The notes: generated by a model from the sequence alone, not told the origin. A DNA stretch of 28,477 nt from Clostridia bacterium (GCA_017412445.1 JAFPYA010000029.1:1-28477); one strand, 5' to 3'. Positions 273 to 23,557 are shown, numbered from the stretch's first letter. A program made the numbers and translations.

Positions 273-809
273 TTATTCTTCTATAGAAATCAAATCTGAC
301 GCTCTCTCGTTGCCGTAATTGTCCACCACGACCAGCTGCATAAAATACCTCGCGTCGTCCGGCAGGGAGGACACGGAAACGTCAAGGCTCAGGGGAACCG
401 TGTTGCCTTCGTCATTATACTCAACCAGGCTGAGGGAATAGTATTCATAAGCATTGGCCGCCTTCCAGCGGTAAAAGGGCTGCGGCTTACCGTTATTGTC
501 ATCAGCGGGCATATAATACGGGCTTACGAACACCAGCTCATATATGCTTTCCAATTTAAGCGTTTGCTTGCCGCTTATCAGCTCATCCTCGCCTGTCTCA
601 AACAAAAGCGGCACGCTCCAGCTTTGGTCGTCAACGCGATATTCGAGTATCAGATTTGCGCTGTGAACGGAGAAATCGTAAAACCCGCTTTCGTTTTCGG
701 TCTGCGAGTAGGCTATGGCCTGAGCCAGATAGCGCCTGACTGCCCGTCGCTCTGTATCATCATAGCGGGCAGCAAAACACTTTTTTTGCCGTTTGAGATG
801 ATGAGGCAC
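273..809 (-). pseudogene. C-terminal continuation of the clostripain-family protein in a shifted frame
   Basis: Overlaps the end of the 713..2200 ORF and has no convincing start of its own. 273..2200 is 1928 nt, so one added base gives a single 643-codon frame. Confidence 0.65.
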
Positions 810-2200
810 TGCCTGTCGTATTTTACGGACGCAGACGCTTCATTAAGTTCATAGTCATTGCCCGCGTATACGAGGCACAGACCCTCCTCGGGCGTGCCGG
901 CGTAAACAAAATACTTGAGTCTGTTGAATACAAACATTTCGGCGTCGGACAGTTCAACGGTGTAAACGCCGTTTGCGGCTTCTGCCCTCACTTCATTGTC
1001 TATCGTCTCAGCGGATTTTACCGCCATGGGATAGTCCGTGATGAAGCTTTTCCACTCGCTCGGCAGGGGCAAATCCGTAAGCTTCTGCTGCCAGGCCGCC
1101 GTTCTGTTCATATCCGCAAACTGGGGGAAATATATGCTCAGCCCGTGGGCGTGCTGGGCGCTGTCAGCGTCCCCTACGCAGCCTACGACGCATTCGTCAA
1201 GGGCTGCCGTTACGCTTTCGGCGTTCGCGCTGAGGGACATGCAATCGCCTGCCAGCTCATACAGATCTATAAAATCGTATTCGGCTTCATCGCCGTATCT
1301 GCCGATGCCCCATTTTCCCACCCTTACGCTGCTGACTGAGGCAAGCTCGTCTCCATGTATTATATAGCTCAGCTCACCAAGCATAAGGTTCAGAGCCTGC
1401 GTAAGGCCGCTTAGCCTGTCGAGCCTCACGAGCGACAGCGTATACGGGTGCTTCTGAGGGCTCACGCGGTTGTTGGTCTCGCAGCTCGCCTGATAGGCGG
1501 CCATCACGTTAAGCCCCATATCCATAGCGGAGCATGAAGCGTCCAGCGCGCTCAAAAAGCCGTAATCCCAGCCGTAATCCGGCTCAATCTCCTGCGAGGC
1601 CAGAAGATAATCGGCATAGGGAGCCAGCATGAACGCCGTTTCGCAGCCCGCCATAAAGCAGGCGTCAAAGCCTATCAGTGAGAGCCTGCTGCCCGAGCAG
1701 CCGGCCTCGTCAAGCGCCTGCGCGATTTCGTTGAGGCTCAGCCGCCTGTCCTCAGGGTTGGTGATGTCGTTGCCAAAGCCCTCTATGGGCCCGTAGCCGT
1801 GATCCCAGAAGATGAGTGCGAGCCTGCCACCGTTTGAAGCGGAGATGCCCTCCCGCAAAAGCGCCTTTAGCGTCTCCTTGTCCCCCATGCAGGTGTCAAG
1901 GGTTCCCAACTGAACAAGGCCGTCCGGGGTAAGGCGGCTGAGCACCGGGGAGGCGGCGTCAAGCTCATTGTGCCACCTGCGCGCGCCGCCGGTGAGGAGT
2001 ATCAGCTGCGTGTCGCCGCTTAGCGACTGCTGCATTTCCTTTATGTCCTTTACCGCGGTGCCGCTGTAGGTTTCAAGATCCGAGCCGACCATGTACACCA
2101 TGATCGTCCAAAAGGAGCCGCCCCCGTTTTCCGCCCCGCCAAACGGCGCCATGGCCAAAAGCAGCGCGAGAATAAGAGAGATATGTCTTTTAAAACTCAT
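713..2200 (-). CDS. Secreted clostripain-related cysteine peptidase (family C11), N-terminal and catalytic part
   Basis: Signal peptide MSFKRHISLILALLLAMAPFGGA. Family motifs WTIMVYMVGSDLE, LIFWDHG (catalytic His), IGFDACFM (catalytic Cys) and YLLASQEIEP. ATGA overlap with the upstream gene. Confidence 0.85.
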   Translation of the reverse strand: MSFKRHISLILALLLAMAPFGGAENGGGSFWTIMVYMVGSDLETYSGTAVKDIKEMQQSLSGDTQLILLTGGARRWHNELDAASPVLSRLTPDGLVQLGTLDTCMGDKETLKALLREGISASNGGRLALIFWDHGYGPIEGFGNDITNPEDRRLSLNEIAQALDEAGCSGSRLSLIGFDACFMAGCETAFMLAPYADYLLASQEIEPDYGWDYGFLSALDASCSAMDMGLNVMAAYQASCETNNRVSPQKHPYTLSLVRLDRLSGLTQALNLMLGELSYIIHGDELASVSSVRVGKWGIGRYGDEAEYDFIDLYELAGDCMSLSANAESVTAALDECVVGCVGDADSAQHAHGLSIYFPQFADMNRTAAWQQKLTDLPLPSEWKSFITDYPMAVKSAETIDNEVRAEAANGVYTVELSDAEMFVFNRLKYFVYAGTPEEGLCLVYAGNDYELNEASASVKYDRQCLIISNGKKSVLLPAMMIQSDGQSGAIWLRP

Positions 2201-2868
2201 TTGCTTAATTCGCTTACAATCGTTTCAAACTCGGTTTTTTCTATGCCCTCGCTCGTCAGCACTATCCAAAGCTCCGAGCGCCTGTATACCGCGCTTAATT
2301 CATTTGTAGAAGGGTCGAGATTGAATCTTGCCCCGCTTGGCCCCGCGTTTTTATCCTCAAGCGCGCCGTAGAGCGCGTTCTCCATATCGCTTACGCTCGC
2401 GTACATGCTTGCTTCGCCTCTCGTAAGCTCCACAAAGGCCTGCTTATGCTCGCCCGAGGAGTAAACTATCGTATCGGTTATCGTCCAGCCTTGAAATAAG
2501 TCATTGCTCGCTACGCCAAACGCCGCTTCGAAATCGTCGCCCGCTTCGCCGCGCGATACGAGGCCGGAGGGCAGAGCGCTCAATTGCACGCTGCCGTATT
2601 CAAACCTTTTGCCCGCTTCAATATTTGTGTTTTGTCCGGGACGTATGAGGGCGACCGCCAGCACTACGCAGGCCGCCAGTGCCGCAAAGGCAGGGACGTA
2701 GCGCAAATAAATGCTCTTCTTTTTCTGTGCTTTCTCGGCGTCTTTATTTCGCAATTCAGTATTTTTGCTCAGCATCAATTGCAGCGTTTCCTGCGCCTTC
2801 GCTTCGGAGAGCTGCTGATTTTCCATATCCGTTATGTAGCTTCCCTTTATACTCTTAGCCATAAACAT
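2197..2868 (-). CDS. Single-pass membrane protein, probable anti-sigma factor
   Basis: Directly downstream of the ECF sigma. Short cytoplasmic N-terminus, one hydrophobic helix (YVPAFAALAACVVLAVALI), then an extracytoplasmic domain. GAGGAG RBS; the start may be the second ATG at 2862. Confidence 0.65.
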   Translation of the reverse strand: MFMAKSIKGSYITDMENQQLSEAKAQETLQLMLSKNTELRNKDAEKAQKKKSIYLRYVPAFAALAACVVLAVALIRPGQNTNIEAGKRFEYGSVQLSALPSGLVSRGEAGDDFEAAFGVASNDLFQGWTITDTIVYSSGEHKQAFVELTRGEASMYASVSDMENALYGALEDKNAGPSGARFNLDPSTNELSAVYRRSELWIVLTSEGIEKTEFETIVSELSK

Positions 2869-2900
2869 AATCTCCTCAAAATAGTATCGGCCCTGCGCGG

Positions 2901-3422
2901 CTACGTCTGCAATTCCACGCTTGTTTTGAGCTTGTCTCGCGCGCGGGACAGACGGGTTTTTACGTTTTGCTCGCTTATGCCGAGGCTTTGAGCTATCTGG
3001 CGCACGCTCATGTCCTCATAATAGAACAGATGTATCACCGTGCGGTAGGCCTCGCTCAATTGCTCCACGGCCTCCTTCATAAGGGTTATGTCCTCCTGCT
3101 GCTCCAGCGCCTCCTCCGGCGTATTGTCTTCGCTTGCCGGCTCGGAAGGGCTTTCATCCTTGGAAAGGGCGTCATCGAACTGCACGCTCAGCTTTATCCA
3201 CATGCTTCTGAAGTGCTTTCGGCAGGCGTTTTGCGTAACGTGTATCAGCCAGGCCTTCAGGTGTTCCATATCGCGGATGCGGTCAGAGTAGCGCACCAGC
3301 GCCATGAATACGTCCTGCTGTATGTCCTCCGCCAAGGACACGCTTTTGGTTTTTACGAGGGCAAGGCGGTATACCATGTTATGGTACTGCTCGTAGGCCT
3401 GTGACAGCTCCTCGTTTGTCAT
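2901..3422 (-). CDS. ECF (sigma-70 family, group 4) RNA polymerase sigma factor
   Basis: Region 2 (YEQYHNMVYRLAL...AEDIQQDVFM...LKAWLIHVTQNAC) and region 4 (LSEAYRTVIHLFYYEDMSVRQIAQSLGISEQNVKTRLSRAR). ATG at 3422 preferred over the ORF-track start at 3467, which lies at the predicted transcription start. Confidence 0.93.
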   Translation of the reverse strand: MTNEELSQAYEQYHNMVYRLALVKTKSVSLAEDIQQDVFMALVRYSDRIRDMEHLKAWLIHVTQNACRKHFRSMWIKLSVQFDDALSKDESPSEPASEDNTPEEALEQQEDITLMKEAVEQLSEAYRTVIHLFYYEDMSVRQIAQSLGISEQNVKTRLSRARDKLKTSVELQT

Positions 3423-3467
3423 TCTTTCGCCGTTAATGGGAATCACCCCGCTCGTTTTGGTATACAA

Positions 3468-4055: not shown

Positions 4056-4405
4056 TGGTGGAGGCGAGGGGGGTCGAACCCCTGTCCGAAAACCCGGTGC
4101 CAAAAGCTTCTCCGAGCGCAGACTGCGTTTTAAATTTCCCCGCTTGAAACTCCCGCAGACGGGATTGACAGTTGGGTAGCTTCATAAATGCCGACGCAGC
4201 TCAAAGCTTTGCCGCGCCCGTTCCCTGCCTTTATGACGCCGGTGGCCTGCGCCGCAGGAGGCTCAGGGTCGACGGTAGCCGCTTAGGCGGCTACAGCGTA
4301 ACTGTTTTCGTTCGCAGTTATTGTTTTTCCCGATTTTAAGGCAGTTCGGGGCTGCCGCTCGCTTCTTTTGACCTCGTGATCCCCGTCGAAACCAAATACG
4401 CCCCC
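4056..4405 (-). ncRNA. ssrA: tmRNA (SsrA), tag peptide ANENSYAVAA
   Basis: 5' GGGGGCGTATTTGGTTTCGACGGGG and 3' GGGGTTCGACCCCCCTCGCCTCCACCA. Acceptor stem with G3.U wobble and encoded CCA. Tag frame GCG AAC GAA AAC AGT TAC GCT GTA GCC GCC TAA at 4315..4283. Adjacent to smpB. Confidence 0.97.
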
Positions 4406-4408
4406 GCG

Positions 4409-4873
4409 TCATCTGCCCTTGGAGGCAGCCCTGAGCGACCTTGCGATCTCGCGGGAGGCATCGCGTGAGGCGATGTCGTCACGCTTGTCGTAGTTGTGCT
4501 TGCCCTTGCAGATGGCAAGCAGCATTTTTACGCGGCCGTTCTTCAGGTATATTTCCAGAGGAATCAGTGTGAGCCCCTTTAAGGACACCGCCTGCTCCAG
4601 CCGCCGTATCTCCTGCTTGTGCATAAGCAGGCGCTTTACGCGCAAGGGGTCGGTGTTGAACACGTTGCCCTTTTCGTAGGGGCTTATGTGCATGCCGTAC
4701 ACCAAAAGCTCGCCAGAGACCACCTGGGCGTAGCTGTCCTTAAGGTTGCATTTGCCCATGCGTATGCTCTTTACCTCGGTGCCCTTGAGCTCTATGCCCG
4801 CCTCAAAGCTGTCCTCTATGAAATAGTCGTGACGCGCCTTGCGGTTCTGGGCGAGAATTTTGTGTGCGTCCAT
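4409..4873 (-). CDS. smpB: SsrA-binding protein SmpB
   Basis: [29 protein letters not shown]...[12 protein letters not shown]...[21 protein letters not shown] before the ATG at 4873. Confidence 0.98.
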
Positions 4874-4978: not shown

Positions 4979-5066
4979 AAATCTGCTGCCAGAGGGACGC
5001 CCCTTTGCGTATAAAACAATGTACTGTGTACATATATACTTTAAGGCAGAGAGGTGTTTGATCATT

Positions 5067-5249
5067 ATGGAAAAGAAGCTTACGCAGTTGTTTGATTTAC
5101 AGCGCTTTGAGGTTAATCCGGCGCTTCAAAGCGTGATAGACGAGACGCACGCGCGCATGTCGCGGCACATCTCGCTGGACGATGCCGAGATAGTGGCCGC
5201 CGCGGGCGGCAGATACATCCCTCAAGAGGAGAAAAAGGAACCTAAGTAA
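5067..5249 (+). CDS. 60-aa peptide with a double-glycine leader-like motif (candidate PCAT substrate and/or sigma partner)
   Basis: [71 protein letters not shown] about 10 nt before the ATG. Stop overlaps the sigma start (TAATG). Confidence 0.8.
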
Positions 5250-5722
5250 TGAACATAGAGCTCATCTACGCCCAGTACCGGGGCAAGGTGCTCAGCTACA
5301 TCCGTTCGCGGGTGGGCTCTTTTGCCGATGCCGAGGATTTGTGCGAGGATGTGTTCGAAAAGATACAAAACAAGCTGGGTGAATACGACGAGAGCAAGGC
5401 GAAAATTAGCACCTGGATCTACACCATCACCCACAACAGCGTGATTGACTATTACCGCCGCACCCGCCCCTCGGGCGAGCTTGACGAAAACATGGCAAGC
5501 GAGGACGAGGTGAGCGACAACCTTTTGAGCACCGAGACCTTAAGCGAGCTGGCTCAGGCGCTCAAAAAGCTGCCCCAGCAAATGCGCGACATTATAGTGC
5601 TCAGATACTACGACGGCAAGCCCCTTACCGAAATAAGCGAAATAATGGGTCTGAGCTACGGCGCGACCAAGCTCAGGCACGCGAGCGCGCTGCAGATGCT
5701 CAAAGAACAGATGCGCTCTTAA
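5249..5722 (+). CDS. ECF sigma factor (sigma-70 family, regions 2 and 4 only)
   Basis: IYAQYRGKVLSYI...AEDLCEDVFEK...STWIYTITHNSVIDYYR and LPQQMRDIIVLRYYDGKPLTEISEIMGLSYGATKLR. Confidence 0.93.
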   Translation: MNIELIYAQYRGKVLSYIRSRVGSFADAEDLCEDVFEKIQNKLGEYDESKAKISTWIYTITHNSVIDYYRRTRPSGELDENMASEDEVSDNLLSTETLSELAQALKKLPQQMRDIIVLRYYDGKPLTEISEIMGLSYGATKLRHASALQMLKEQMRS

Positions 5723-5730
5723 GCAAACAA

Positions 5731-5781
5731 GTTTTCACCCCGTGACCGCAGTTCAATGCGTTTTCGGGGTGAAGCTTTTTT
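5731..5781 (+). terminator. Intrinsic terminator after the ECF sigma
   Basis: TTCACCCCG...CGGGGTGAA stem with an inner CGCA/TGCG stem, followed by a T run. Confidence 0.65.
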
Positions 5782-5791
5782 ATGCGGGAAA

Positions 5792-6183
5792 CACCTCATC
5801 CGACCTTGTTAAGCCCATCGCGGTGGCAGCGGAAAGTCGCCACCTCATCCGACCTCGCTGCGCTCGGCCACCTTCCCTTCGGAGGGGAAGGCTACCAAAA
5901 GGCTTCCCCTTGAGGGGAAGCTGGCAGCCGTAAGGCTGACTGATGAGGTGGGCAAAAGGCGAACATATCTCTTCGTTCATCAATATTCCATCCTTCACTC
6001 TCCGACCTCGTTTCGCCATTAACAGCGGCAGCTGAGACCCGCCACCTCATCCGACCTCGCTGCGCTCGGCCACCTTCCCCTCGGAGGGGAAGGCGCTCAA
6101 AGGGCTTCCCCTGGAGGGGAAGCGGGCAGCCGTAAGGCTGACTGATGAGGTGGCGGCATCCTCAAGGCTGACTTATGAGGTGG
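5792..6183. repeat. REP/REPIN-like composite palindromic elements, two near-identical 112-bp copies plus partial copies
   Basis: CCACCTCATCCGACCTCGCTGCGCTCGGCCACCTTCCC...GGGGAAGGC-spacer-GGCTTCCCCT..GAGGGGAAGC.GGCAGCCGTAAGGCTGACTGATGAGGTGG at 5840-5951 and 6042-6153. Partial copies near 5792, 6000 and 6164. Confidence 0.88.
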
Positions 6184-6252
6184 GCTTCCGCGTAGCGTCC
6201 CCCATTCCCCCAACGAAATCTGCGGCGCCTTTTTGTTTTGCCCGGTTTTCTA

Positions 6253-6281
6253 TTGACAAATCGGGCTTTCGGTTTTATTAT
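6253..6281 (+). promoter_or_regulatory. sigmaA-type promoter of the NHLP export operon
   Basis: TTGACA-17 nt-TATTAT, followed immediately by a tandem TACTCAAA x2 (6283-6298). Confidence 0.8.
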
Positions 6282-6331
6282 TTACTCAAATACTCAAATA
6301 AAACGTACCCATCAGTAAAGGAGAATAGCCT

Positions 6332-6826
6332 ATGAGTCAGGAGCAGGGCAAGGTCAGGCTGTTCAGGGAAAAGAGCCTTGAGGCGATTGAATCCCCGGAA
6401 AAGCTGAACGATTATCTCAGGGTGACCGACGCGGGCGTGTGGCTGGTGCTGGCCGCCGTGATAGCGCTGCTTGCAGGTTTCGTTTTGTGGGGCATATTCG
6501 GCAGCATAGATACCACCGTGAACATGGCTGTGGAGGCCGAAAACGGCGTGAGCGTGGTCTACGTGCCCTACGAAAAGCTGGACGCGGTGATGGAAAAGGG
6601 CTATGTCACGCTCGATAACGGCGACACCTACCGCTTCGACACAGCCGCGGCCATAAGCGTAAAGGTGCTGGACGAAACGCAAAGCGCCTTTTTGCTCAGG
6701 GCGGGCGGCTTCAGCGCGGGCGATGTGACCGCGGTGCTCACGCTCAAGGGCGCGCCCGGGGACGGCGTGTATTCCGCCTCGGCGGTGACCGAGCGCCTAA
6801 AGCCCATCTCGCTTTTGTTTAAATAG
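6332..6826 (+). CDS. Short NHLP-system secretion/adaptor protein (N-terminus like the HlyD-type NHLM secretion protein)
   Basis: LFREKSLEAIESPEKLNDYLRVTDAGVWLVLAAVIALLAGFVLWGIFG resembles the N-terminus of NHLM secretion proteins. One TM helix, AAGGAG RBS, first gene before two NHLP ABC transporters. Confidence 0.75.
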   Translation: MSQEQGKVRLFREKSLEAIESPEKLNDYLRVTDAGVWLVLAAVIALLAGFVLWGIFGSIDTTVNMAVEAENGVSVVYVPYEKLDAVMEKGYVTLDNGDTYRFDTAAAISVKVLDETQSAFLLRAGGFSAGDVTAVLTLKGAPGDGVYSASAVTERLKPISLLFK

Positions 6827-6837
6827 GAGGGGACAAG

Positions 6838-9015
6838 GTGTTTAACAAAAAGAATGTCCCCAAGCCGCTCATGCACGGGGCGGCCAAGGTGCCCGTGGTC
6901 ATGCAGATGGAGGCGCTTGAGTGCGGCGCGGCCTCGCTGACCATGATTATGCACTACTACAAAAAGTTCATTCCCCTCGAGCAGGCGCGCGTGGACTGCG
7001 GCGTGAGCATGAACGGCGCCAACGCCAAAAACATACTTTTGGCCGCGCGCTCGTACGGCATGGAGGCCAACGCCTGGCGCGTCGAGCCCGAGGATTTGCT
7101 GAACGAAGGCCCCTACCCCTGCATAATCCACTGGGGCTTCAACCACTTCGTGGTGCTGTGCGGCTTTAAGGGCAAAAGGGCGGTGCTGAACGACCCCGCT
7201 CGCGGCAACGTGACCGTGGACTGGGAGGAATTTGACCGCGAGTTTACGGGCGTGTGCCTGACCTTTGAGCCATCGGAGGAGTTCGCGCCCTCGGGCAAGC
7301 CCAAGAGCGTACTTTCCTACGCCAGGGAGCGCCTGAAGGGCAGCGGCGCCGCCGTGGCCTTCGTGGTGTTGACCACCACCATTTCTTCACTTATAGGCCT
7401 GATCAGCCCCGCGTTCAGCCGCGCGTTTCTCGACCGGCTGCTGACGCAGCAAAATCCCGAATGGCTCACGCCCTTCATGCTTCTGTTTGCGGTGATGATA
7501 CTTATAAGCGTGACCGTAAGCTGGATTTCGGCGGTGTATTCGCTCAGGATCCAGGGCAAGATGGCGGCCTACGGCTCGAGCGCCTACCTCTGGAAGGTGC
7601 TCAGACTTCCCATGCAGTTCTTTAATCAGCGCCTGGCCGCGGACATCTCCGACCGCCAGAGCACCAACGCGGGCATAGCGGGCACATTGGTAAACACCTT
7701 TGCGCCCCTTGCGCTGCAGGCGCTGATGATGGTGTTTTACCTCGTGGTGATGATAGGCTACAGCCCCATGCTCTCGCTTATAGGCGTGGGCTCGATAGCG
7801 CTGAACCTTCTGGTGAGCGTATGGGTGAGCAACAAGCGCGTGAACATCACGCGCGTGCAGCAAAGGGACAGGGCCAACCTGTCCGCCTCCACCATGAGCG
7901 GCATAAGCATGATAGAGACCATAAAGTCGAGCGGCGCGGAAAACGGCTTTTTCGGCCGCTGGGCGGGCTTTCAGGCGGGCGTAAACACCCAGGAGGTCAA
8001 GTACACGCGCCTGAACCTGCTGATAGGCACGCTGCCGGGCGCGATAACCTCCCTTGCCAACGTGGCGGTGTTGTCTCTTGGCGTGATGCTGGTGGTAAAG
8101 GGCGAATTCACCCGCGGCATGGTTATGGCGTTTCAGGGGTATCTGAGCGCGTTCACCTCCCCCGCCACCTCGCTCATAAACGCGGGGCAGCGCATGCAGG
8201 AAATGATAACCCAGATGGAGCGGGTGGACGACGTGATGAGCTACAGGGAGGACGAAAGCTTTTCTCCCCGCGTGAAGACCTCCGAATACGAAAAGCTCTC
8301 CGGCGCGATAGAGCTTAAAAACGTCACCTTCGGCTATTCCCGCTTGGACAAGCCGCTGATAAGCGACTTCAGCATGAGCGTAAAGCCCGGCCAGAAGATT
8401 GCCTTCGTGGGCAGGACGGGCTGCGGCAAAAGCACGCTTGCAAAGCTCATAAGCGGCCTGTACAGCCCGTGGGAGGGCGAGATCACCTTTGACGGCGTGC
8501 CGCTCAAGGACATAGACCGAAACGTGTTCACCGGCTCGGTCAGCGTAATAGATCAGGAGATAACCCTCTTTGAGGACACGATCTCCCAGAACATAAAGAT
8601 GTGGGACGAGTCCATAGAGGACTTCGAGGTGACCCTCGCCGCGCGCGACGCGGGCATATACGACGACATAGTCACCCGCGAGGGCGGCTTCGGCCACAAG
8701 CTGCTCGACGGCGGGCGCGACCTCTCGGGCGGCCAGAGGCAGAGGCTGGAGATCGCAAGAGCCCTGTCTCAGGACCCCACCATTTGCATTATGGACGAGG
8801 CCACCAGCGCGCTTGACGCGACCACTGAGCACGAGGTAATAAAGTCCATAAACGACCGCGGCATCACCTGCATAATAATCGCCCACAGACTGAGCACGAT
8901 ACGTGACTGCGACGAGATAATAGTGCTGGACAAGGGCAAAATAATCGAGCGAGGCACCCACGAGCAGCTCTACGCCGCGGGCGGCTTCTATCACGACCTT
9001 GTGACGAGCGAGTAA
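6838..9015 (+). CDS. NHLP-family bacteriocin export ABC transporter, C39 peptidase/permease/ATPase (PCAT)
   Basis: C39 triad intact: QMEALECGAASL (Cys), HWGFNHFVV (His), LNDPARG (Asp). TM domain, Walker A GRTGCGKS, signature LSGGQRQR, Walker B IMDEATSALD. Confidence 0.93.
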   Translation: MFNKKNVPKPLMHGAAKVPVVMQMEALECGAASLTMIMHYYKKFIPLEQARVDCGVSMNGANAKNILLAARSYGMEANAWRVEPEDLLNEGPYPCIIHWGFNHFVVLCGFKGKRAVLNDPARGNVTVDWEEFDREFTGVCLTFEPSEEFAPSGKPKSVLSYARERLKGSGAAVAFVVLTTTISSLIGLISPAFSRAFLDRLLTQQNPEWLTPFMLLFAVMILISVTVSWISAVYSLRIQGKMAAYGSSAYLWKVLRLPMQFFNQRLAADISDRQSTNAGIAGTLVNTFAPLALQALMMVFYLVVMIGYSPMLSLIGVGSIALNLLVSVWVSNKRVNITRVQQRDRANLSASTMSGISMIETIKSSGAENGFFGRWAGFQAGVNTQEVKYTRLNLLIGTLPGAITSLANVAVLSLGVMLVVKGEFTRGMVMAFQGYLSAFTSPATSLINAGQRMQEMITQMERVDDVMSYREDESFSPRVKTSEYEKLSGAIELKNVTFGYSRLDKPLISDFSMSVKPGQKIAFVGRTGCGKSTLAKLISGLYSPWEGEITFDGVPLKDIDRNVFTGSVSVIDQEITLFEDTISQNIKMWDESIEDFEVTLAARDAGIYDDIVTREGGFGHKLLDGGRDLSGGQRQRLEIARALSQDPTICIMDEATSALDATTEHEVIKSINDRGITCIIIAHRLSTIRDCDEIIVLDKGKIIERGTHEQLYAAGGFYHDLVTSE

Positions 9016-9030
9016 AGGAGGCGAGCGGCT

Positions 9031-11223
9031 GTGGGTTGGTTTGACGAGCAAATAGAATACAGAAAAAAGTACGAGCGCGAGCTGCTCGGCGACTCCTTTG
9101 AAAACATCGCCCGCTCGGTGACGGGCAGGCGCGTGAGCAGCACTGGCTTTGGCGGCGAGGCGGACGTAAGCGACGCGGTGAGCGCGCTGCTTAAGCATTT
9201 CGGTGTAAAGGAAAAGGAGGTGCCCGCCACAGTCACGGGGCTCAACGACAGGCTGGACTACCTGCTCTCCTCCACGGGCATACTCTACCGCGAGGTGATA
9301 CTCACAAAGGGCTGGCGCAGGGACGCCATGGGCGCAATGATTGGCTCGCTGATAAACGAGGGCGCGGTGATAGCGCTTCTGCCCTCGGACATGGGCGGCT
9401 ACGAGTACACAGACCCCAAAACCGGCGGCAAGGTGCGCGTGGGCGCGAAGGAGGAAAAGAACATAAGCGCCGAGGCGCTGTGCTTTTACCGTCCCCTGCC
9501 CATGCGAAAGCTGACTGTAAAGGACCTGCTTCAATTCATGAAGAGCTGCCTTACTATGCGGGACGTGCTCTCCTTCGCCTTTGCCACGCTCGCCGTGACG
9601 CTTGTGGGCCTGCTTATGCCGAGGCTCAACAACATACTGATGGGCGAGGTGGTCGAGAACCAAAGCTACCGGCTTTTGTTCGCGGTCAGCTCGTTTATAC
9701 TCTTTGCCACCCTGGGCACGATACTTTTGTCCATAATAAAGTCCTTCACGCTCGGGCGCATACGCGCAAAGCTGAGCCTGAACGTAAGCTCGGCCACTAT
9801 GATGCGTTTATTGTCCCTCCCGGCCTCGTTCTTTAAGGACTACTCGGCGGGCGAATTGAACCAGTACGTAAGCTACATGGATTCTCTGGCCGCGACCGTT
9901 GTGGACTCGGTGTTTGCGACCTCGCTCACCGGCGTGTTTTCGCTGATATATCTCGGGCAGGTGTTCGCCTACGCGCCCGGCCTCGTATGGCCGAGCCTGA
10001 TAGTTACGTTTGTGACGCTGGCGGTCAGCCTCATCTCCGCGCGGGTTCAGATGCGCATAGACACCGAAAAGATGACCGTAACCGCAAGGGAGCGCGGCCT
10101 TGTGTATTCGCTCATCACCGGCATACAGAAGATACGCCTGAGCGGCGCCGAAAACCGCGCCTTCGCCAAGTGGTCGAGGCAGTACACCCAGAGCGCCGCG
10201 CTTACATACAGCCCGCCCGCGATAATACGCCTTTCGGGCGTGATAACCTCGGCCGTGAGCCTGATTGGCACCGCGATAATGTACTACGTGGCGGTTCAAA
10301 GCCGCGTGAGCGTGCAGGACTACTACGCCTTCAACACCGCCTACGCCTACATTTCATCGGCGTTTTCGTCGCTGGCGGCGATGGCGCTGTCAGCAGCGGG
10401 CATAAAGCCCATAGTGTCGCTGATAAAGCCGCTGCTCAGCGCTGAGCCCGAGACCGGCGAAAGCAAGGAGACCATGACAAAGCTCGGCGGCCGCATAGAG
10501 CTTTCGCACGTCACCTTCGGCTACGACCCCGAGAGCAAGCCGCTGTTTGACGACTTCAACCTCGTGATTCCCGCGCGCCAGTACGTGGCGATAGTGGGCA
10601 AGAGCGGCTGCGGCAAATCCACGCTGGTCAGGCTGCTGCTGGGCTTTGAAAAGCCCTCGCGCGGCGTAATCTACTATGACCGCCGCGACATGCAGCAGAT
10701 AGACTTAAAGTCCTTAAGGCGCCAGATAGGCACCGTGATGCAGGACGGCAAGCTCTTCAGCGGCTCTATATTCGACAACATAGTCATCTCCGCGCCCACC
10801 ATAAAGCTGCAGGACGCATGGGACGCGGCGGAGATCGCGGGCATAGCCGACGACATACGCGACATGCCCATGGGCATGAACACGATGCTGCAGGAGGGCG
10901 GCGGCACAATATCCGGCGGCCAGAGGCAGCGGCTTATGATTGCCCGCGCCGTTGCGCCCAAGCCCAAAATTCTCATATTCGACGAGGCCACAAGCGCCCT
11001 GGACAACCTGACGCAAAAGAAGGTCTCCGAGGCGCTGGACTCCATGAAGTGCACCCGCATAGTTATCGCCCACCGCCTTTCGACCATACGCCGCTGCGAC
11101 AGGATACTCGTTATTGACAACGGCAAAATCGCCGAGGACGGCACATACGAGGAGCTCATCGCGAAGAACGGCCTGTTCAGCGAGCTGGTCAGGCGCCAGC
11201 GCCCGGACGGCAAGGCCGACTGA
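9031..11223 (+). CDS. NHLP bacteriocin export ABC transporter, permease/ATPase subunit
   Basis: Typical MGWFDEQI N-terminus without a catalytic Cys motif. TM domain, GKSGCGKS, ISGGQRQR, IFDEATSALD. Tandem with the PCAT. Confidence 0.9.
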   Translation: MGWFDEQIEYRKKYERELLGDSFENIARSVTGRRVSSTGFGGEADVSDAVSALLKHFGVKEKEVPATVTGLNDRLDYLLSSTGILYREVILTKGWRRDAMGAMIGSLINEGAVIALLPSDMGGYEYTDPKTGGKVRVGAKEEKNISAEALCFYRPLPMRKLTVKDLLQFMKSCLTMRDVLSFAFATLAVTLVGLLMPRLNNILMGEVVENQSYRLLFAVSSFILFATLGTILLSIIKSFTLGRIRAKLSLNVSSATMMRLLSLPASFFKDYSAGELNQYVSYMDSLAATVVDSVFATSLTGVFSLIYLGQVFAYAPGLVWPSLIVTFVTLAVSLISARVQMRIDTEKMTVTARERGLVYSLITGIQKIRLSGAENRAFAKWSRQYTQSAALTYSPPAIIRLSGVITSAVSLIGTAIMYYVAVQSRVSVQDYYAFNTAYAYISSAFSSLAAMALSAAGIKPIVSLIKPLLSAEPETGESKETMTKLGGRIELSHVTFGYDPESKPLFDDFNLVIPARQYVAIVGKSGCGKSTLVRLLLGFEKPSRGVIYYDRRDMQQIDLKSLRRQIGTVMQDGKLFSGSIFDNIVISAPTIKLQDAWDAAEIAGIADDIRDMPMGMNTMLQEGGGTISGGQRQRLMIARAVAPKPKILIFDEATSALDNLTQKKVSEALDSMKCTRIVIAHRLSTIRRCDRILVIDNGKIAEDGTYEELIAKNGLFSELVRRQRPDGKAD

Positions 11224-11225
11224 CC

Positions 11226-11774
11226 GTGAATACGCCTGCCTTTGACTTTATTCTCCTGCCCGGCATACGCTTAAGGGACGACGGCGGCATACCGGACGAA
11301 ATGCTTTTGCGCGTAAACAGGGCGCTCGACGTCTGGCGCGCCTCGGGAGAGCCGGTGATAGTGGCGCTGGGCGCGGACGCGGCAAGCGTGGGCGTAAGCG
11401 AGGCCGCGGCGATGAAAGGCCTGCTGACCGAAGCCGGCGTGCCGGAAGACCTCGTAGTGACCGAGGACAAAAGCTTCGTCACCAGCGAAAACTTCATAAA
11501 CGCGCGCGCCTTCATACCGCCCGGTTCGCGCCTTGCGCTGGTCACGAGCGACTACCACATGGCGCGCGCCCGCCTGCTCGCCCGCAAGGCGGGCTTTAAG
11601 GTAAAGGGCTTCAAGGCCAGAACCCCGGGCGGAAGTCTCAAGCGCCGCCGCCGCATTTTAGAGCTGCTGGGCATAATAGACGCGCTGTGCGGCTTTCAGA
11701 ACGAAAACCGCACCCGCCCCGCCCCCGTAGAGCGCTTCAAGCGCTTTATGAGCAGAAAGCTGACAGGAAAATAA
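11226..11774 (+). CDS. YdcF/DUF218 (SanA/ElyC-like) family protein
   Basis: FILLPG, EAAAMKGLL..AGVP, TEDKSFVTSENF, LVTSDYHMARA. Confidence 0.8.
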   Translation: MNTPAFDFILLPGIRLRDDGGIPDEMLLRVNRALDVWRASGEPVIVALGADAASVGVSEAAAMKGLLTEAGVPEDLVVTEDKSFVTSENFINARAFIPPGSRLALVTSDYHMARARLLARKAGFKVKGFKARTPGGSLKRRRRILELLGIIDALCGFQNENRTRPAPVERFKRFMSRKLTGK

Positions 11775-17352: not shown

Positions 17353-17438
17353 CTTGCGTGCTCAAAAACACAAAGACCCGATATCGGGCCGCTTTTCCCG
17401 TTTCCTTATATTTTACCCCTCCATTCCTTAAAAAAGTA

Positions 17439-17467
17439 TTGCGAAAGTGTTGCAGGTGTTGTATAAT
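17439..17467 (+). promoter_or_regulatory. sigmaA-type promoter of the glycopolymer operon
   Basis: TTGCGA-17 nt-TATAAT. Confidence 0.7.
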
Positions 17468-17498
17468 ACAGGGTGATAAAATGTGCGGAGGTATGGGC

Positions 17499-18098
17499 GT
17501 GTACAGGCGATATGTGAAGCGGGCGCTGGACGTGGCGGCAAGCTTTTTGCTGCTGATTGCTCTGCTTCCCGTGTTTGCCCTTATCGCCTTTGCGATAAAG
17601 CTTGACTCCAAGGGCCCCGTGTTTTTCACTCAGGTGCGCATAGGCAAGGACGAAAAGCCCTTTAAGATAATTAAATTCAGAACCATGCGCGTTAAAGCCC
17701 CCAGCGAGATGCCCACGCGCCTTATGCAAAGGAGCCGCGCCTACATAACCCGCGTGGGCAGGTTTTTGAGAATAACGAGCCTTGACGAATTGCCCCAGCT
17801 TATAAACATATTGAAGGGCGACATGAGCTTTGTGGGCTTCAGACCCTGCCTGTGGAACGAGTACGAGCTGGACGACGAGCGGCGCAGAAACGGCGCCTAC
17901 TCCGTGCGCCCCGGCATAACCGGCATAGCGCAGATACGCGGCAGAGACGAGCTTGAGCCCGCCGAGAAGGCGCGTCTGGACGGCGTGTACGCGCGCCACG
18001 TGGGCTTCGACTACGACTTCAGAATAATCACCAAGACGGTGTTCGCGGTGTTCTACAAAGAGGGCTACAAGGAGGGAGGAGACTTTGGGCTTGAGTAA
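17499..18098 (+). CDS. Priming polyisoprenyl-phosphate sugar transferase (Bac_transf family)
   Basis: KRALDV, IKLDSKGPVFFTQ.RIG, IKFRTM, TSLDELPQL.NILKGDMSFVG.RP, PGITG.AQI.GR. The GTG at 17499 fits GGAGGT spacing; ATGs at 17481 and 17493 are alternatives. Confidence 0.9.
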   Translation: MYRRYVKRALDVAASFLLLIALLPVFALIAFAIKLDSKGPVFFTQVRIGKDEKPFKIIKFRTMRVKAPSEMPTRLMQRSRAYITRVGRFLRITSLDELPQLINILKGDMSFVGFRPCLWNEYELDDERRRNGAYSVRPGITGIAQIRGRDELEPAEKARLDGVYARHVGFDYDFRIITKTVFAVFYKEGYKEGGDFGLE

Positions 18099-20112
18099 CA
18101 AATATTCGGTGCTTATGAGCGTATACGCGGCCGAAACCGCGCCCAACCTGCGCATGAGCCTTGACAGCGTGCTGAGCCAGACGCTGCCTCCCGACGAGAT
18201 AGTATTGGTAAAGGACGGCCCGCTCACGGAGGAACTGGATAAAGTAATAGACGAGTGCGTCTCCTGTCACGAGGGGCTTTTCAACGTGGTGCCGCTGGAA
18301 AAAAACACGGGGCTTGGCAACGCGCTTAACGTAGGGCTGCAGCAGTGCAAAAACGAGTACGTGGCGCGCATGGACTCGGACGACGTGTGCTATCCCGACA
18401 GGATGCAAAAGCAGATGGATTTTCTTCAGGCGCATCCCGAGGTGGACATACTTTCGGGCACTATAGATGAGTTTGACGGCAGCATAAGCAACGTGACCGG
18501 ACGGCGCGTGCTGCCGCTGGGCAATGAGGAGATATGGCGCTTCGCAAAGACGCGCTGCCCCTTCAACCACAACTGCACCGTGTACAAAAAGAGCAAGGTG
18601 CTCGAGGTGGCGGGCTACCGCACCGACCTTAAGCGCGTGGAGGATCACGACCTGTGGATGCGCATGCACGCCGCGGGCGCGGTGGGCGCGAACCTTGCCG
18701 ATTCTATACTCTACGCCCGCGCGGGCACAGACATGCACGTACGCCGCCACGGCCGCGAAAACGCCATGGCGCTGCACGAGTTCTACCGCGAGCTGTGGCA
18801 GTTGAAGGAGATCAGCTTTCCGAGGTACATATACGACATTGTGTGCGCCTGCGGCCTGCAGCTGATGCCCACGTGGATGCACAAAATGTGCTATAAGCTC
18901 ATACGCTTAAAGACCAGACCCTACGGCTCAAAGCCGAAGGTAAAGGAAGAGGCCGCAAAAGAAGTCGGCGAGTTTTACACCGGCGAAATGACTCAGGAGG
19001 AGATTTCCGAGGCGCAAAGGCTCATATTTGAAATCTTCTCGGACGTAAAGCAGCTGTGCGAAACGCAAGGGCTCACGCTTATGCTTGGCGGCGGCAGCTG
19101 CCTTGGCGCGGTGCGCTCCCGCGGCTTCATACCCTGGGACGACGACATGGACTGCATTATGCCCCGTGCGGACTACGAGAAGCTCAAGCTCATATTCGAC
19201 AGCGCGCTCGGCGACAAATACGTTTTGCAGGTGCCGCGCGTAAAAGGTCACAGGGCAAGCAACCTGTTTATGAAGATAATACGGCGGGACGGCCCAGAGC
19301 ACGTGCAGCCTTCCCACGCGGGCGACCCCGGCGAAAAGGGGCTGTGGCTGGACATAGTGCCCATGGATTTTGCGCCCGAAAACGCCTTTAAGCGCGTTTT
19401 CAAGGGGCTGTGGTGCGACTTTATCGCCTACGTCGCGGTGTCGCGCTACCTGCTCAAATGCCGCTCTGCCGTCTACGCCGCCTACATGAAGCGCACGCCC
19501 CGCGGAAGGCTCGAATACTACTTCAGAAACGTTTTGGGCTTTCTGGCCTCCTTTATGAGCTATGAGGGCTGGTACGACTATTTTGACTCCGTGTGCCGCG
19601 GGAAGTGCGAGACCCGTCTGGTCACCTTCGCCTCCGGCACGGGGCACTACCTCGGCGAATGCATGCCGCTTGATACCTTCCTGCCCGCGGGCGTAGGCGA
19701 ATTTGAGGGCGCGCAGGTGCTTTTGCCCCGTAAGGCACACAATTACCTTCGCCGCCACTACGGCGCGGACTACATGACGCCTCCGAAAAGCGAACACCGA
19801 AAAGCTCACCCCATAGTAAGAAAAATCGCCTCCACCGCCGCGCCCGTGGACGAAACCGACGGCACCTACGCAGACGTTTCGGAGGCGAACGCACTCAGCG
19901 CCGAGGCTGACGCCGCAAGCGCCGTGGCCGCAGATGAGCGCGCCGAGGCGCAGGCAGACGCCGCGCAGTACGCAGGCGAAGCGCAGGCAGACGCTACAGC
20001 CGACACAATCGAAGCACAGGCAGACGCCGCGCCTGACACAAACGAGGCGCAGGCAGACGCCGCACATGACACAATCGAAGCGCAAGCAAGCGCGGGCGGG
20101 GCGCAGAGATGA
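18085..20112 (+). CDS. GT2 glycosyltransferase fused to a LicD-family phosphotransferase, with an acidic repeat tail
   Basis: GT2: YSVLMSVY, VKDGPL, ARMDSDD, EDHDLW. LicD: GGSCLGAVRSRGFIPWDDDMDCIMPRADYEKL, WLDIVPMD, YL..HYGADYM.PP. Confidence 0.88.
   Translation: MGLSNKYSVLMSVYAAETAPNLRMSLDSVLSQTLPPDEIVLVKDGPLTEELDKVIDECVSCHEGLFNVVPLEKNTGLGNALNVGLQQCKNEYVARMDSDDVCYPDRMQKQMDFLQAHPEVDILSGTIDEFDGSISNVTGRRVLPLGNEEIWRFAKTRCPFNHNCTVYKKSKVLEVAGYRTDLKRVEDHDLWMRMHAAGAVGANLADSILYARAGTDMHVRRHGRENAMALHEFYRELWQLKEISFPRYIYDIVCACGLQLMPTWMHKMCYKLIRLKTRPYGSKPKVKEEAAKEVGEFYTGEMTQEEISEAQRLIFEIFSDVKQLCETQGLTLMLGGGSCLGAVRSRGFIPWDDDMDCIMPRADYEKLKLIFDSALGDKYVLQVPRVKGHRASNLFMKIIRRDGPEHVQPSHAGDPGEKGLWLDIVPMDFAPENAFKRVFKGLWCDFIAYVAVSRYLLKCRSAVYAAYMKRTPRGRLEYYFRNVLGFLASFMSYEGWYDYFDSVCRGKCETRLVTFASGTGHYLGECMPLDTFLPAGVGEFEGAQVLLPRKAHNYLRRHYGADYMTPPKSEHRKAHPIVRKIASTAAPVDETDGTYADVSEANALSAEADAASAVAADERAEAQADAAQYAGEAQADATADTIEAQADAAPDTNEAQADAAHDTIEAQASAGGAQR
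19945..20094 (+). repeat. In-frame 33-nt (11-aa) tandem repeat, about 4.5 copies
   Basis: EAQADAAQYAG / EAQADATADTI / EAQADAAPDTN / EAQADAAHDTI / EAQASA. Units start at 19945, 19978, 20011, 20044 and 20077. Confidence 0.9.
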
Positions 20113-21254
20113 AGAGGTCTCAGCTGCTGGCGTCGTACCTGGTGACGCTGCTCAGTCGCGCGGCGCTTTCGCCCTTAAAGCTTTTGCCCGTAAAAAGCAA
20201 GCGCGCGTTGTTTTTGAGCTTTCGCGGCAAGCAGTACTCCTGCAACCCGAGGGCGATAAGCGAAAAGCTCGGCAGCATCGCGGGCGGCAGGGTAGAGATA
20301 GTGTGGGCGTTTCACGAGCCCGAAAGGTTCAGAAAGCTCGTTCCTCAGGGCGTAAAGGTGATAAGCGACCGGGGCTTTAAGTTCATATACTATGCCCTTA
20401 CGTCAAGGGTGGTGTGCACCAACACCTACTATAAGCCCCACATTCCCCGGCGCAGGGCTCAGTTTTACCTAAGAACCTGGCACGGCGGCGGGGCGTACAA
20501 AAAGGTGAGCTACCCCAAGGGGCTGATGGGCCGCTACATACGCCTGCAGCAGCAGGGCGCGAGCCTGTATCTGTCCTCCTCCGAGGCGTTTACAAAAATG
20601 ACCCTGCGCGAGTCCTTCGGCTACAAAGGCGAGGTGCTTGAGGCGGGTATGCCGAGAAACGACCCGCTCGTAAACGGCGATTGGAGAAGAATCGCCGAAA
20701 ACGTGCGCCGCGAGCTGGGGCTGGAGGGCAAAAAAATATGCCTCTACGCCCCCACCTACCGCGAGAAGGACAAAAAAGTGCCCAAAGTGCCCGACGCCGA
20801 AAGGCTGAGGGACGCGCTTAAGGAGCGCTTTGGCGGCGAGTGGGTGCTGCTTTCGCGCGGGCATCACGCCGACAAAAACGGCGTGCCGTTCGCTTCAGAC
20901 ATGGACGTAAGCGCCTACCCAGACATGCAGCCGCTTCTGATGGCCGCGGACGCGCTGATAACCGACTATTCCTCCTGCATATGGGACGCGGCGCTGGTGC
21001 CAAAAAGCGTGTTTCTGTTTGTGCCGGACATAGACGAATATATCTCCGACCGCGATTTTTACACGCCCATAGACACTTGGGGCTTTCCCGTGTCAAAGGA
21101 CGACGATGCCCTCATCAGCAATATACTTGCCTTTGACGAGGCCGCCTACCAAAAAAGAGTCTCCGCCGCCCTCGCAAAGCTCGGCAACAGGGAGACCGGC
21201 CGCGCCTCCCTCCTGGCAGCTGAAAGGATAATGAGGGAGTGCGTGGGAAAATAA
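20109..21254 (+). CDS. CDP-glycerol glycerophosphotransferase family protein (TagF/TagB-like)
   Basis: TWHG, GMPRND, LYAPTYR, LITDYSS and FVPDIDEY...RDFY. ATGA overlap with the upstream gene. Confidence 0.88.
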   Translation: MKRSQLLASYLVTLLSRAALSPLKLLPVKSKRALFLSFRGKQYSCNPRAISEKLGSIAGGRVEIVWAFHEPERFRKLVPQGVKVISDRGFKFIYYALTSRVVCTNTYYKPHIPRRRAQFYLRTWHGGGAYKKVSYPKGLMGRYIRLQQQGASLYLSSSEAFTKMTLRESFGYKGEVLEAGMPRNDPLVNGDWRRIAENVRRELGLEGKKICLYAPTYREKDKKVPKVPDAERLRDALKERFGGEWVLLSRGHHADKNGVPFASDMDVSAYPDMQPLLMAADALITDYSSCIWDAALVPKSVFLFVPDIDEYISDRDFYTPIDTWGFPVSKDDDALISNILAFDEAAYQKRVSAALAKLGNRETGRASLLAAERIMRECVGK

Positions 21255-23520: not shown

Positions 23521-23557
23521 CAAATCCTCCCGAAATGATCAAAAGCCGCCCGGGGCT

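Follow-up and report, generated by a model that had tools for sequence, protein, structure and literature searches.

The window analysed here is a stretch of 28,477 nt from Clostridia bacterium (GCA_017412445.1 JAFPYA010000029.1:1-28477; the source assembly is 88% complete and comprises 390 contigs), and the part under study, positions 5067-11223, carries the gene of a 60-residue small protein (hereafter the peptide), the gene of a minimal extracytoplasmic function (ECF) sigma factor, and the genes of an exporter of the nitrile hydratase leader peptide (NHLP) type, i.e., a peptidase-containing ATP-binding cassette (ABC) transporter (PCAT) with its adaptor and partner subunit. Their arrangement is as follows:

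4986-5013, plus strand: candidate ECF-type promoter, CTGCCA-N16-CGTATA, 54 nt upstream of the start codon of the peptide gene.
5067-5249, plus strand: the 60-residue peptide, an open reading frame with a ribosome-binding site.
5249-5722, plus strand: minimal ECF sigma factor of 157 residues with regions 2 and 4 only, from Pfam and NCBIfam matches.
5729-5785, plus strand: intrinsic terminator immediately behind the sigma gene, with a hairpin and then six U in a row.
6253-6281, plus strand: candidate sigma-70-type promoter, TTGACA-17-TATTAT, ahead of the transporter operon, a consensus match only (11/12).
6332-6826, plus strand: adaptor of 164 residues with an N-terminal transmembrane segment as in the HlyD protein of NHLP systems, a partial match to TIGR03794.
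6838-9015, plus strand: ABC1, the NHLP-type PCAT, with C39 peptidase (about 6838-7290), permease and ATPase, TIGR03796.
9031-11223, plus strand: ABC2, partner permease/ATPase with no recognisable peptidase domain, TIGR03797.

The genes had been named in an initial annotation made from the sequence alone, and the 60-residue frame, the TAATG overlap with an ECF sigma gene, the adaptor and the two ABC transporters were all recovered at the positions it gave. The peptide gene has the ribosome-binding site GAGAGGTG, and its stop codon TAA (5247-5249) has one base in common with the ATG of the sigma gene, by which the two genes are translationally coupled. The sigma factor matches region 2 (Sigma70_r2, 3e-17) and region 4 (3e-12) in Pfam, and TIGR02937 with 105 bits. 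The terminator hairpin folds with -25.5 kcal/mol (z = -3.76), a stability that no shuffle out of 200 equalled, and the peptide-sigma pair and the transporter, with this terminator, two repeats and the sigma-70-type promoter candidate between them, are separate transcription units in the window. The 610-bp gap between sigma and adaptor genes is filled by the two repeats (5799-5951 and 6001-6153), which are 87% identical to each other and represent a 153-nt element that contains palindromes. This element is dispersed over the source assembly (35 fragments on 17 contigs by blastn), and its copy number varies between strains, because near-identical strains have gaps of only 280-408 bp. Metatranscriptome contigs (sheep, bovine and other gut) contain sparse fragments over the peptide, sigma, adaptor, ABC1 and ABC2 at a depth of 2-6, which may include DNA carry-over and in which transcript ends are not visible.

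ABC1 scores 898.6 bits against TIGR03796 (model positions 1-709), above the cut-off of 853.3, and has a Peptidase_C39 match at 1e-32; it is the only TIGR03796 gene, and holds the only C39 domain, of the source assembly. This domain aligns with LahT150 (PDB 6MPZ) at E 5e-65 and about 70% identity by eye, and its Gln23, Cys29, His103 and Asp119 align with the catalytic Gln21, Cys27, His101 and Asp117 of LahT150 (PMC6363468), so that the claim of an intact protease is borne out. ABC2, with 689 bits against TIGR03797, falls 20 below the cut-off of 709.4 (the next-best family reaches 365 bits) and is treated as a divergent member of that family; its N-terminal 175 residues had no match in Pfam or the PDB. 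The adaptor aligns with TIGR03794 only over residues 20-64 (the N-terminal 45; 34 bits against a cut-off of 156.2) and has 164 residues against about 420, and it is kept directly upstream of ABC1 in 13 loci.

Co-occurrence of the components was counted in 151 genomes of the same bacterial family and in a further 300 genomes sampled from the class, with thresholds of E ≤ 1e-160 for TIGR03796 and E ≤ 1e-22 for sigma orthologs, and with the family profile for the peptide (open reading frames in the relatives' loci, cited below by L numbers, were picked by a GC3-based filter, and the gene maps of lower-GC loci are rough). Among the same-family genomes, the peptide was found in 27, a TIGR03796 ABC1 in 41 and a sigma ortholog in 24, and the three sets are nested. 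The exporter is present in all 27 genomes with the peptide versus 14 of the 124 without it, and the peptide in all 24 genomes with the sigma ortholog, in which sigma and peptide genes are neighbours without exception, whichever comes first. At the level of genera, the exporter occurs in 29 of 72, and these 29 include all 18 genera with the peptide. In 12 of the 27 genomes no more than 10 kb separate the peptide gene from the exporter, and their relative order and orientation differ between genomes; in the others, the exporter is on another contig or far off. Three matches were obtained from the class sample, in three other families, each with a contiguous adaptor-ABC1-ABC2-peptide-sigma cassette, which brings the co-occurrence of peptide homologs and PCATs, the absence of which the initial annotation had named as damaging to its proposal, to 27/27 plus 3/3. 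On metagenome contigs of divergent members, the peptide gene likewise overlaps or abuts an ECF sigma gene. The asymmetry of the nested sets (sigma within peptide within ABC1) is what a dependence of the peptide on the exporter predicts. Given this nesting, an adjacency that persists through rearrangement and the cassettes outside the family, a functional link is the simplest reading. That peptide, sigma factor and NHLP-type PCAT form an evolutionarily linked module, as had been proposed, and not a chance neighbourhood is well supported; the cassette is real, conserved and uncharacterised.

A gene for a SpoIIE-type PP2C phosphatase was seen directly beside adaptor/ABC1 or sigma in about nine loci (L079:3191-5311, L023, L034, L035, L051, L056, L062, L067 and L080), two of them out-of-family cassettes. 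Sensor domains of the Cache/HAMP type occur in the copy of L056, and an RsbW-like HATPase_c_2 kinase is either part of the phosphatase protein or encoded after it, with no STAS partner seen in these loci; in the window genome its homologs are on other contigs (C176, C300 and C112). This recurrent phosphatase might provide a second regulatory input, or it might act as a receptor.

The peptide belongs to a family that comprises at least 175 clusters (E ≤ 1e-3); most come from gut Clostridia, and almost all have 57-90 residues. The family is visible only by exhaustive HMMER search (a word-indexed homology search recovered just one 97%-identical cluster), and its consensus reads MEKKLxxLFD[YF]Q[KR]FExNxxLQxVIDxxHxRY...LSDD[ED]LxxVxAAG up to the tail. 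Position F9 never varies, and L5, Q12, F14, L20, I24, A45, A46 and G47 are conserved in at least 90% of the family; the information per column amounts to 2.53 bits over residues 1-34 and 2.76 over residues 35-47 and falls to 0.80 in the tail. The window copy accordingly shows two conserved helices (1-34), a leader-type helix ending in VAAAG (35-47) and a variable charged tail (48-60), and its AlphaFold2 model has helices at 2-14, 18-31 and 37-46 with a tail without secondary structure (pLDDT 70). The tails of the family have a median of 17 residues, are about 39% charged, slightly acidic on average and of low complexity, rich in K, E, D and P with 0.6% Cys, and are not conserved even between close relatives. 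A few members carry a CxxC...CxxC Zn-ribbon instead of the tail, and L025 and L032 each have two tandem copies of the peptide with different tails.

No Pfam or NCBIfam family was found for the window peptide or for 76 relatives, which gave only scattered sub-threshold matches to double-glycine (GG) leader families, and neither was there a match to a described family of anti-sigma factors of ECF sigmas in these databases, be it of class I (ASD/ZAS) or of class II such as CnrY and NepR. Its neighbours in the ESM Atlas are all "hypothetical protein", and no source searched gave a family name. Kinship with Nif11-type leaders was considered and rejected (hhalign against the Nif11-like leader from L050, probability 5%), and only 1 of the 76 family members matches the NHLP leader model TIGR03793, with E 0.06. 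Two longer sequences, P0004 (376 residues) and P0124 (189 residues), contain the N-terminal motif of the peptide in tandem (6 and 3 stretches, respectively); they look like low-complexity or repeat translations, not true relatives.

The initial annotation had described a GG leader, and GG is indeed present in the window copy, but the motif of the family is A-A-G, found in 130 of 147 representatives (of up to 150 residues), whereas the residue after it varies and xGG occurs in 8. As judged from these alignments, A-A-G and not GG is the conserved feature, and the GG of the window copy is not a family feature. For recognition by LahT150 the final 13 residues of a leader suffice, in which positions -4, -7 and -12 are hydrophobic, and GG, GA and GS are all accepted (PMC6363468). 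Counted from the conserved Gly, the family positions are L-13, L-8, V-5, A-3, A-2 and G-1; V, L and L thus match the recognition spacing of LahT if the cut follows V-x-A-A and the conserved Gly is +1. A minority of the family has a true V-A-G-G aligned to V-A-A-A. For the window copy and the LSLDEAE subgroup two registers fit, AAA/G (with V-4 and I-12) or GG/R (with I-7 and L-12), and because of this ambiguity the cut site is not readable from the sequence. We consider it likely that the peptide is a substrate of the PCAT.

Relatives also encode, close to the exporter or the peptide gene, tandem small proteins that have a short canonical GG leader or a Nif11-like leader:

L030:2224-2757, L035:11041-11643 and L036:8749-9003: GG-leader LysM cargo.
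L048:11707-13355 and L051:4066-4320: GG-leader Zn-ribbon cargo.
L059:6787-7370: GG-leader SH3b cargo (Pfam SH3_3 25.9 bits, just below the cut-off of 27).
L050:6576-7584, and also in L062: Nif11-like leader with a Cys-rich core, near ABC1.

This variety indicates that the exporter has varied cargo in the lineage, in which PCAT export of cell-wall-binding mini-domains seems common. The Zn-ribbon-tailed members of the peptide family look like true leader-cargo fusions, with the same kind of cargo as the GG-leader proteins of L048 and L051.

A role of the peptide in sigma control is suggested by its surroundings, as the sigma gene is its sole invariant neighbour and no other anti-sigma candidate lies nearby. 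The conservation of residues 1-34 points in the same direction, because a LahT150-like protease does not need them and no modifying enzyme that might dock on them is present. Prediction of a complex of peptide and sigma gave ipSAE values of 0.47, 0.48 and 0.54 in three runs (0.48 being the headline value) against 0.00 for three controls, which lends weak support to an interaction: the pass mark for this score is reached by 58 of 80 solved complexes and by 2 of 110 mismatched pairs, and values of 0.60 or below are found, among those passing, in only 7 of the 80 solved complexes and in both passing mismatches. The predicted contacts join peptide residues 1-34 to sigma residues 10-17 and 52-62 (region 2) and 93-152 (region 4), and the model thus gives weak support to a geometry in which an anti-sigma factor is sandwiched between regions 2 and 4. 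Binding of the sigma factor by the small protein appears to us somewhat better founded than its absence, and the small protein probably acts as an anti-sigma factor.

The candidate ECF-type promoter is a conserved element: CTGCCA-N15/16-CGTAT(A/C) occurs upstream of the peptide gene in 11 loci and also precedes the GG-leader LysM gene in L030, and among the out-of-family cassettes two of three retain CGTAT at -10, the third (L078) having CGGAT and retaining TGCCA at -35. Judged from this conservation, the motif would be a promoter, and it is most simply read as autoregulation. A scan of the source genome for CTGCCA-N14-17-CGTAT gave 14 matches, mostly intragenic, against 2-11 in shuffled sequences, which is too weak to define a regulon. 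One of the copies (C234:13109-13134, equivalent to L072:610-635) lies about 120 nt upstream of two tandem SH3b proteins with Sec signals (158 and 161 residues); these genes are a possible member of the regulon but no more than a lead, as the motif is only weakly enriched genome-wide.

RiPP (ribosomally synthesised and post-translationally modified peptide) enzymes were absent from Pfam scans of every large open reading frame in the window, and the source assembly gave no match to YcaO, to the NHLP leader (TIGR03793) or to the Nif11 leader (TIGR03798), the leader models being searched at E ≤ 1. No LanC-like match was found in the assembly either, although that model matched 0 of 14 control genomes, so that this negative proves little. 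The assembly holds one member of the peptide family, a six-frame scan of it with a regular expression yielded no other plausible small GG-leader frame, and homologs of the relatives' GG-LysM peptides are missing from it. The statements of the initial annotation that RiPP enzymes are lacking nearby and that the peptide is the only GG-type frame are thus upheld, and the separate conventional precursor with modifying enzymes that might have accounted for the transporter was not found in the source assembly.

The reading that we favour, although our confidence in it stays a little short of even, is that the small protein is both a substrate of the PCAT (through residues 35-47) and a partner and inhibitor of the sigma factor (through residues 1-34), and that processing by the PCAT releases the sigma. 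The two N-terminal helices would bind the co-translated sigma between regions 2 and 4, most likely in an inhibitory way, as a minimal soluble anti-sigma factor, and the leader-type helix (L-x4-L-x2-V-x-A-A-G) would make the same protein a C39 substrate. The PCAT would cut at or beside AAG and export the short tail, and the cut would inactivate or destabilise the inhibitor. A cut after VAAA might leave an Ala-Ala C-terminus resembling the SsrA tag of the host (...YAVAA), although such a degron step is speculative. The freed sigma would then fire its own promoter (CTGCCA-N16-CGTATA) and other targets, in relatives maybe including GG-leader cargo that binds the cell wall. The initial annotation had offered either an exported peptide signal or a peptide that gates the sigma in a PCAT-dependent way. 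The conserved residues 1-34, the adjacency to sigma and the weakly supportive complex prediction fit gating better, whereas a defined signalling peptide finds no support, given a hypervariable tail and a cassette that lacks a conserved receptor. The most specific version, in which the C39 domain of the PCAT is the activating protease of an ECF sigma and cuts a 60-residue soluble anti-sigma factor at AAG to expose an SsrA-like end, we regard as a tentative proposal that may well prove wrong.

Several points weigh against the dual role. The co-occurrence counts overstate the evidence, because related genomes are not independent, and hence no P-values are given; furthermore, 3 of the 27 peptide genomes lack a sigma ortholog at E ≤ 1e-22, and one Zn-ribbon member of the family is an orphan with no sigma nearby. 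The complex prediction used alignments made for this analysis, of which that of the sigma factor was shallow (11 rows), and it may reflect a memory of sigma/anti-sigma complexes in the model. The GG of the window may be an accident, since the residue concerned (+1 or -1) varies, and the canonical register would place Ala-Ala at -2/-1, for which we found no published experiment with a C39 domain accepting it. The CTGCCA/CGTAT motif was not found upstream of the transporter operon in the source genome, and the transporter in the window has a sigma-70-like promoter candidate of its own. In the topology of a PCAT, the cleaved leader stays cytoplasmic, so that release of the sigma needs an extra step (degradation or loss of affinity), and the model names no signal that would modulate a constitutively active PCAT.

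Plain export is the simplest competing explanation: the peptide would be an unmodified PCAT substrate with a long structured leader (as in Nif11 and NHLP precursors) and without control over sigma, which would only drive its transcription, and the tail would serve outside the cell as a species-specific signal or as an envelope-acting peptide. The leader-type motif and the complete co-occurrence with PCATs agree with it, as does the ECF-type promoter before the gene, which fits simple sigma-dependent expression. Precursors classically pair a leader that is conserved with a C-terminus that is hypervariable (PMC2887384), the tandem copies with differing tails (L025 and L032) resemble precursor families, and the Cache-domain PP2C phosphatase genes that recur beside the exporter could be receptors. 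However, the tails are short and charged and show low complexity and no conservation, the cassette includes no conserved receptor, and significant similarity to Nif11 or NHLP leaders is lacking. A fixed signalling peptide is unlikely, because the tail is not conserved. This explanation also leaves the conservation of residues 1-34 unaccounted for (there is no modifying enzyme, and the related protease needs 13 residues; PMC6363468), and the predicted contact with sigma is specific relative to the controls. We consider plain export unlikely, though worth keeping in view.

A further explanation takes the peptide as a sigma regulator only, i.e., a cytoplasmic anti-sigma factor or co-factor that is never processed by the PCAT; its link to the exporter would exist because the genes controlled by the sigma factor serve the exporter or its cargo. 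The strict adjacency to sigma and the coupling of translation, the predicted interface on residues 1-34, a motif that is AAG rather than GG, the transcriptional separation of the two units in the window and the ECF-type motif before the GG-LysM cargo gene in L030 would all be in keeping with it. Against these stand residues 35-47, which reproduce the spacing for protease recognition (L, L, V and small residues), the canonical VAGG in a minority of the family, the Zn-ribbon members, which look like leader-cargo fusions, and the fact that the peptide never occurs without a PCAT, a nesting that a mere regulator does not require. We therefore hold this explanation to be distinctly improbable.

A RiPP or bacteriocin precursor, with modifying enzymes elsewhere in the genome or in the unassembled 12%, is very improbable: NHLP-type exporter families were defined through RiPP precursors (Haft 2010, PMC2887384) and the assembly is incomplete (88%, 390 contigs), but YcaO, NHLP and Nif11 matches are missing from it (the LanC-like negative coming from a model silent in the control genomes), the window tail has no Cys, Ser or Thr and those of the family 0.6% Cys, no modifying enzyme stands next to the peptide gene in the fetched loci (where Nif11-like Cys-rich precursors lie near ABC1 in L050 and L062), and a core this short, acidic and hydrophilic does not suit a class II bacteriocin. 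With tails that are short, about 39% charged, Cys-poor and unconserved (0.8 bits per column versus 2.5-2.8 for the leader), a bacteriocin appears unlikely, as the initial annotation had argued.

Beyond the cassette, the following features adjoin the part under study:

4056-4405, minus strand: transfer-messenger RNA (tmRNA) gene with the tag peptide ANENSYAVAA, beside smpB and divergent from the peptide-sigma operon.
4409-4873, minus strand: smpB, adjoining the tmRNA gene.
11226-11774, plus strand: DUF218 protein (SanA/ElyC-like envelope factor; PF02698, 2e-21), beginning 3 nt past the ABC2 stop codon.

DUF218 genes were also found between sigma and adaptor in L025, L052 and L053, and beside exporter genes in L065 and in the P0019 metagenome contigs. 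The tmRNA is covered in metatranscriptome contigs at a depth in the thousands versus 2-6 for the neighbouring genes. A second ECF sigma gene lies at 2901-3467 (minus strand) within the region 713-3467, and after it come a 223-residue frame without Pfam match, possibly its anti-sigma factor, and a clostripain-family C11 peptidase (713-2200, minus strand). Envelope glycopolymer genes occupy 17358-21254 (plus strand; a sugar transferase, a GT2-LicD fusion and a CDP-glycerol glycerophosphotransferase), and a 642-residue EF-G-like GTPase with GTP_EFTU, EFG_III, EFG_IV and EFG_C domains is encoded at 21595-23523 (minus strand), its length being typical of tetracycline ribosomal-protection proteins. 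The large frames of the window outside the cassette include the clostripain-like peptidase, the second ECF sigma, SmpB, GNAT, an LPG-synthase-like protein, purine enzymes, teichoic-acid-type transferases, the EF-G-like GTPase and a 5'-nucleotidase.

Bacteria make major use of ECF sigma factors for signalling, and PCATs are known to export bacteriocins, pheromones and a few proteins. The known controls of ECF sigma factors are membrane anti-sigma factors with regulated proteolysis, partner switching, C-terminal extensions and phosphorylation. The dual role proposed here has a likeness in FlgM, the small, largely helical, soluble anti-sigma factor of sigma-28, which is removed by flagellar type III export. 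Here, too, a soluble anti-sigma factor would be removed by a dedicated export machine, coupling the sigma to the state of that machine, and the sigma might then drive genes of later cargo; the machine, however, is an ABC transporter of the PCAT type and not a type III secretion system, the sigma factor is of the ECF type and not of group 3, the sigma-binding leader would stay cytoplasmic, and what is known of the present system comes from sequences and models. Regulated proteolysis of RseA (sigma-E of E. coli) and RsiW (sigma-W of B. subtilis) exposes an Ala-rich C-terminal degron for ClpXP. The proposed cut would expose a ...V-A-A(-A) end like the SsrA tag (ANENSYAVAA in this host), and CGTATA at -10 is similar to the corresponding element of sigma-W-type ECF promoters, whereas the inhibitor here is soluble, of 60 residues and without a transmembrane segment, and the proposed protease is the cytoplasmic C39 domain of an exporter instead of site-1/site-2 membrane proteases.

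The LahT/NHLP-type PCATs (Haft 2010, PMC2887384; Bobeica 2019, PMC6363468) share with the present exporter the TIGR03796 match, the C39 residues and the adaptor/ABC1/ABC2 layout, and the candidate substrate has the hydrophobic spacing for LahT if the cut follows V-x-A-A. The present locus differs in having no NHLP or Nif11 leader, no LanM or cyclodehydratase and an adaptor reduced to a 164-residue stub, and its candidate substrate ends the leader in AAG and has a short, unconserved tail; the tie to an ECF sigma factor seen here is not mentioned for NHLP-type exporters in either paper. The ComC/ComAB/ComX and Blp systems of streptococci (PMC10630487, PMC7018657) resemble the proposed system in that a GG-type peptide, processed by a PCAT, acts upstream of an alternative sigma factor and of further GG-peptide genes, but they signal via a two-component system or an Rgg receptor, neither of which is conserved here, and their mature part is conserved within pherotypes, whereas the tail here has low complexity and lacks conservation. 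MAM of Faecalibacterium (PMC12184118) is likewise a non-bacteriocin GG-leader cargo of gut Clostridia with proposed export by an adjacent PCAT, and as such sets a precedent for the GG-leader proteins with LysM, SH3b or Zn-ribbon cargo near the relatives' exporters; it differs in being a 135-residue structural envelope protein with a 21-residue leader and no described link to a sigma factor. Literature searches found no paper linking ECF sigma or anti-sigma factors with PCATs, C39 domains or double-glycine peptides.

The cassette ties an ECF sigma factor to a PCAT through an uncurated protein family, and it is small enough for transfer to a model host. If only export were true, the family would constitute a new leader family with an AAG processing motif, which would bear on genome mining for RiPPs and bacteriocins and on LahT-type proteases as tools. 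If the dual-function model were true, it would be a new way to activate a sigma factor and would explain PCAT loci without a "product"; PCAT-dependent activation of sigma would represent a new class of ECF regulation and a regulatory role of PCATs, and only then would the system be categorically new. The activity of the sigma factor would in that case show whether the exporter is present or active, as in a checkpoint of the FlgM type, and might drive the genes of GG-leader cargo binding to the cell wall.

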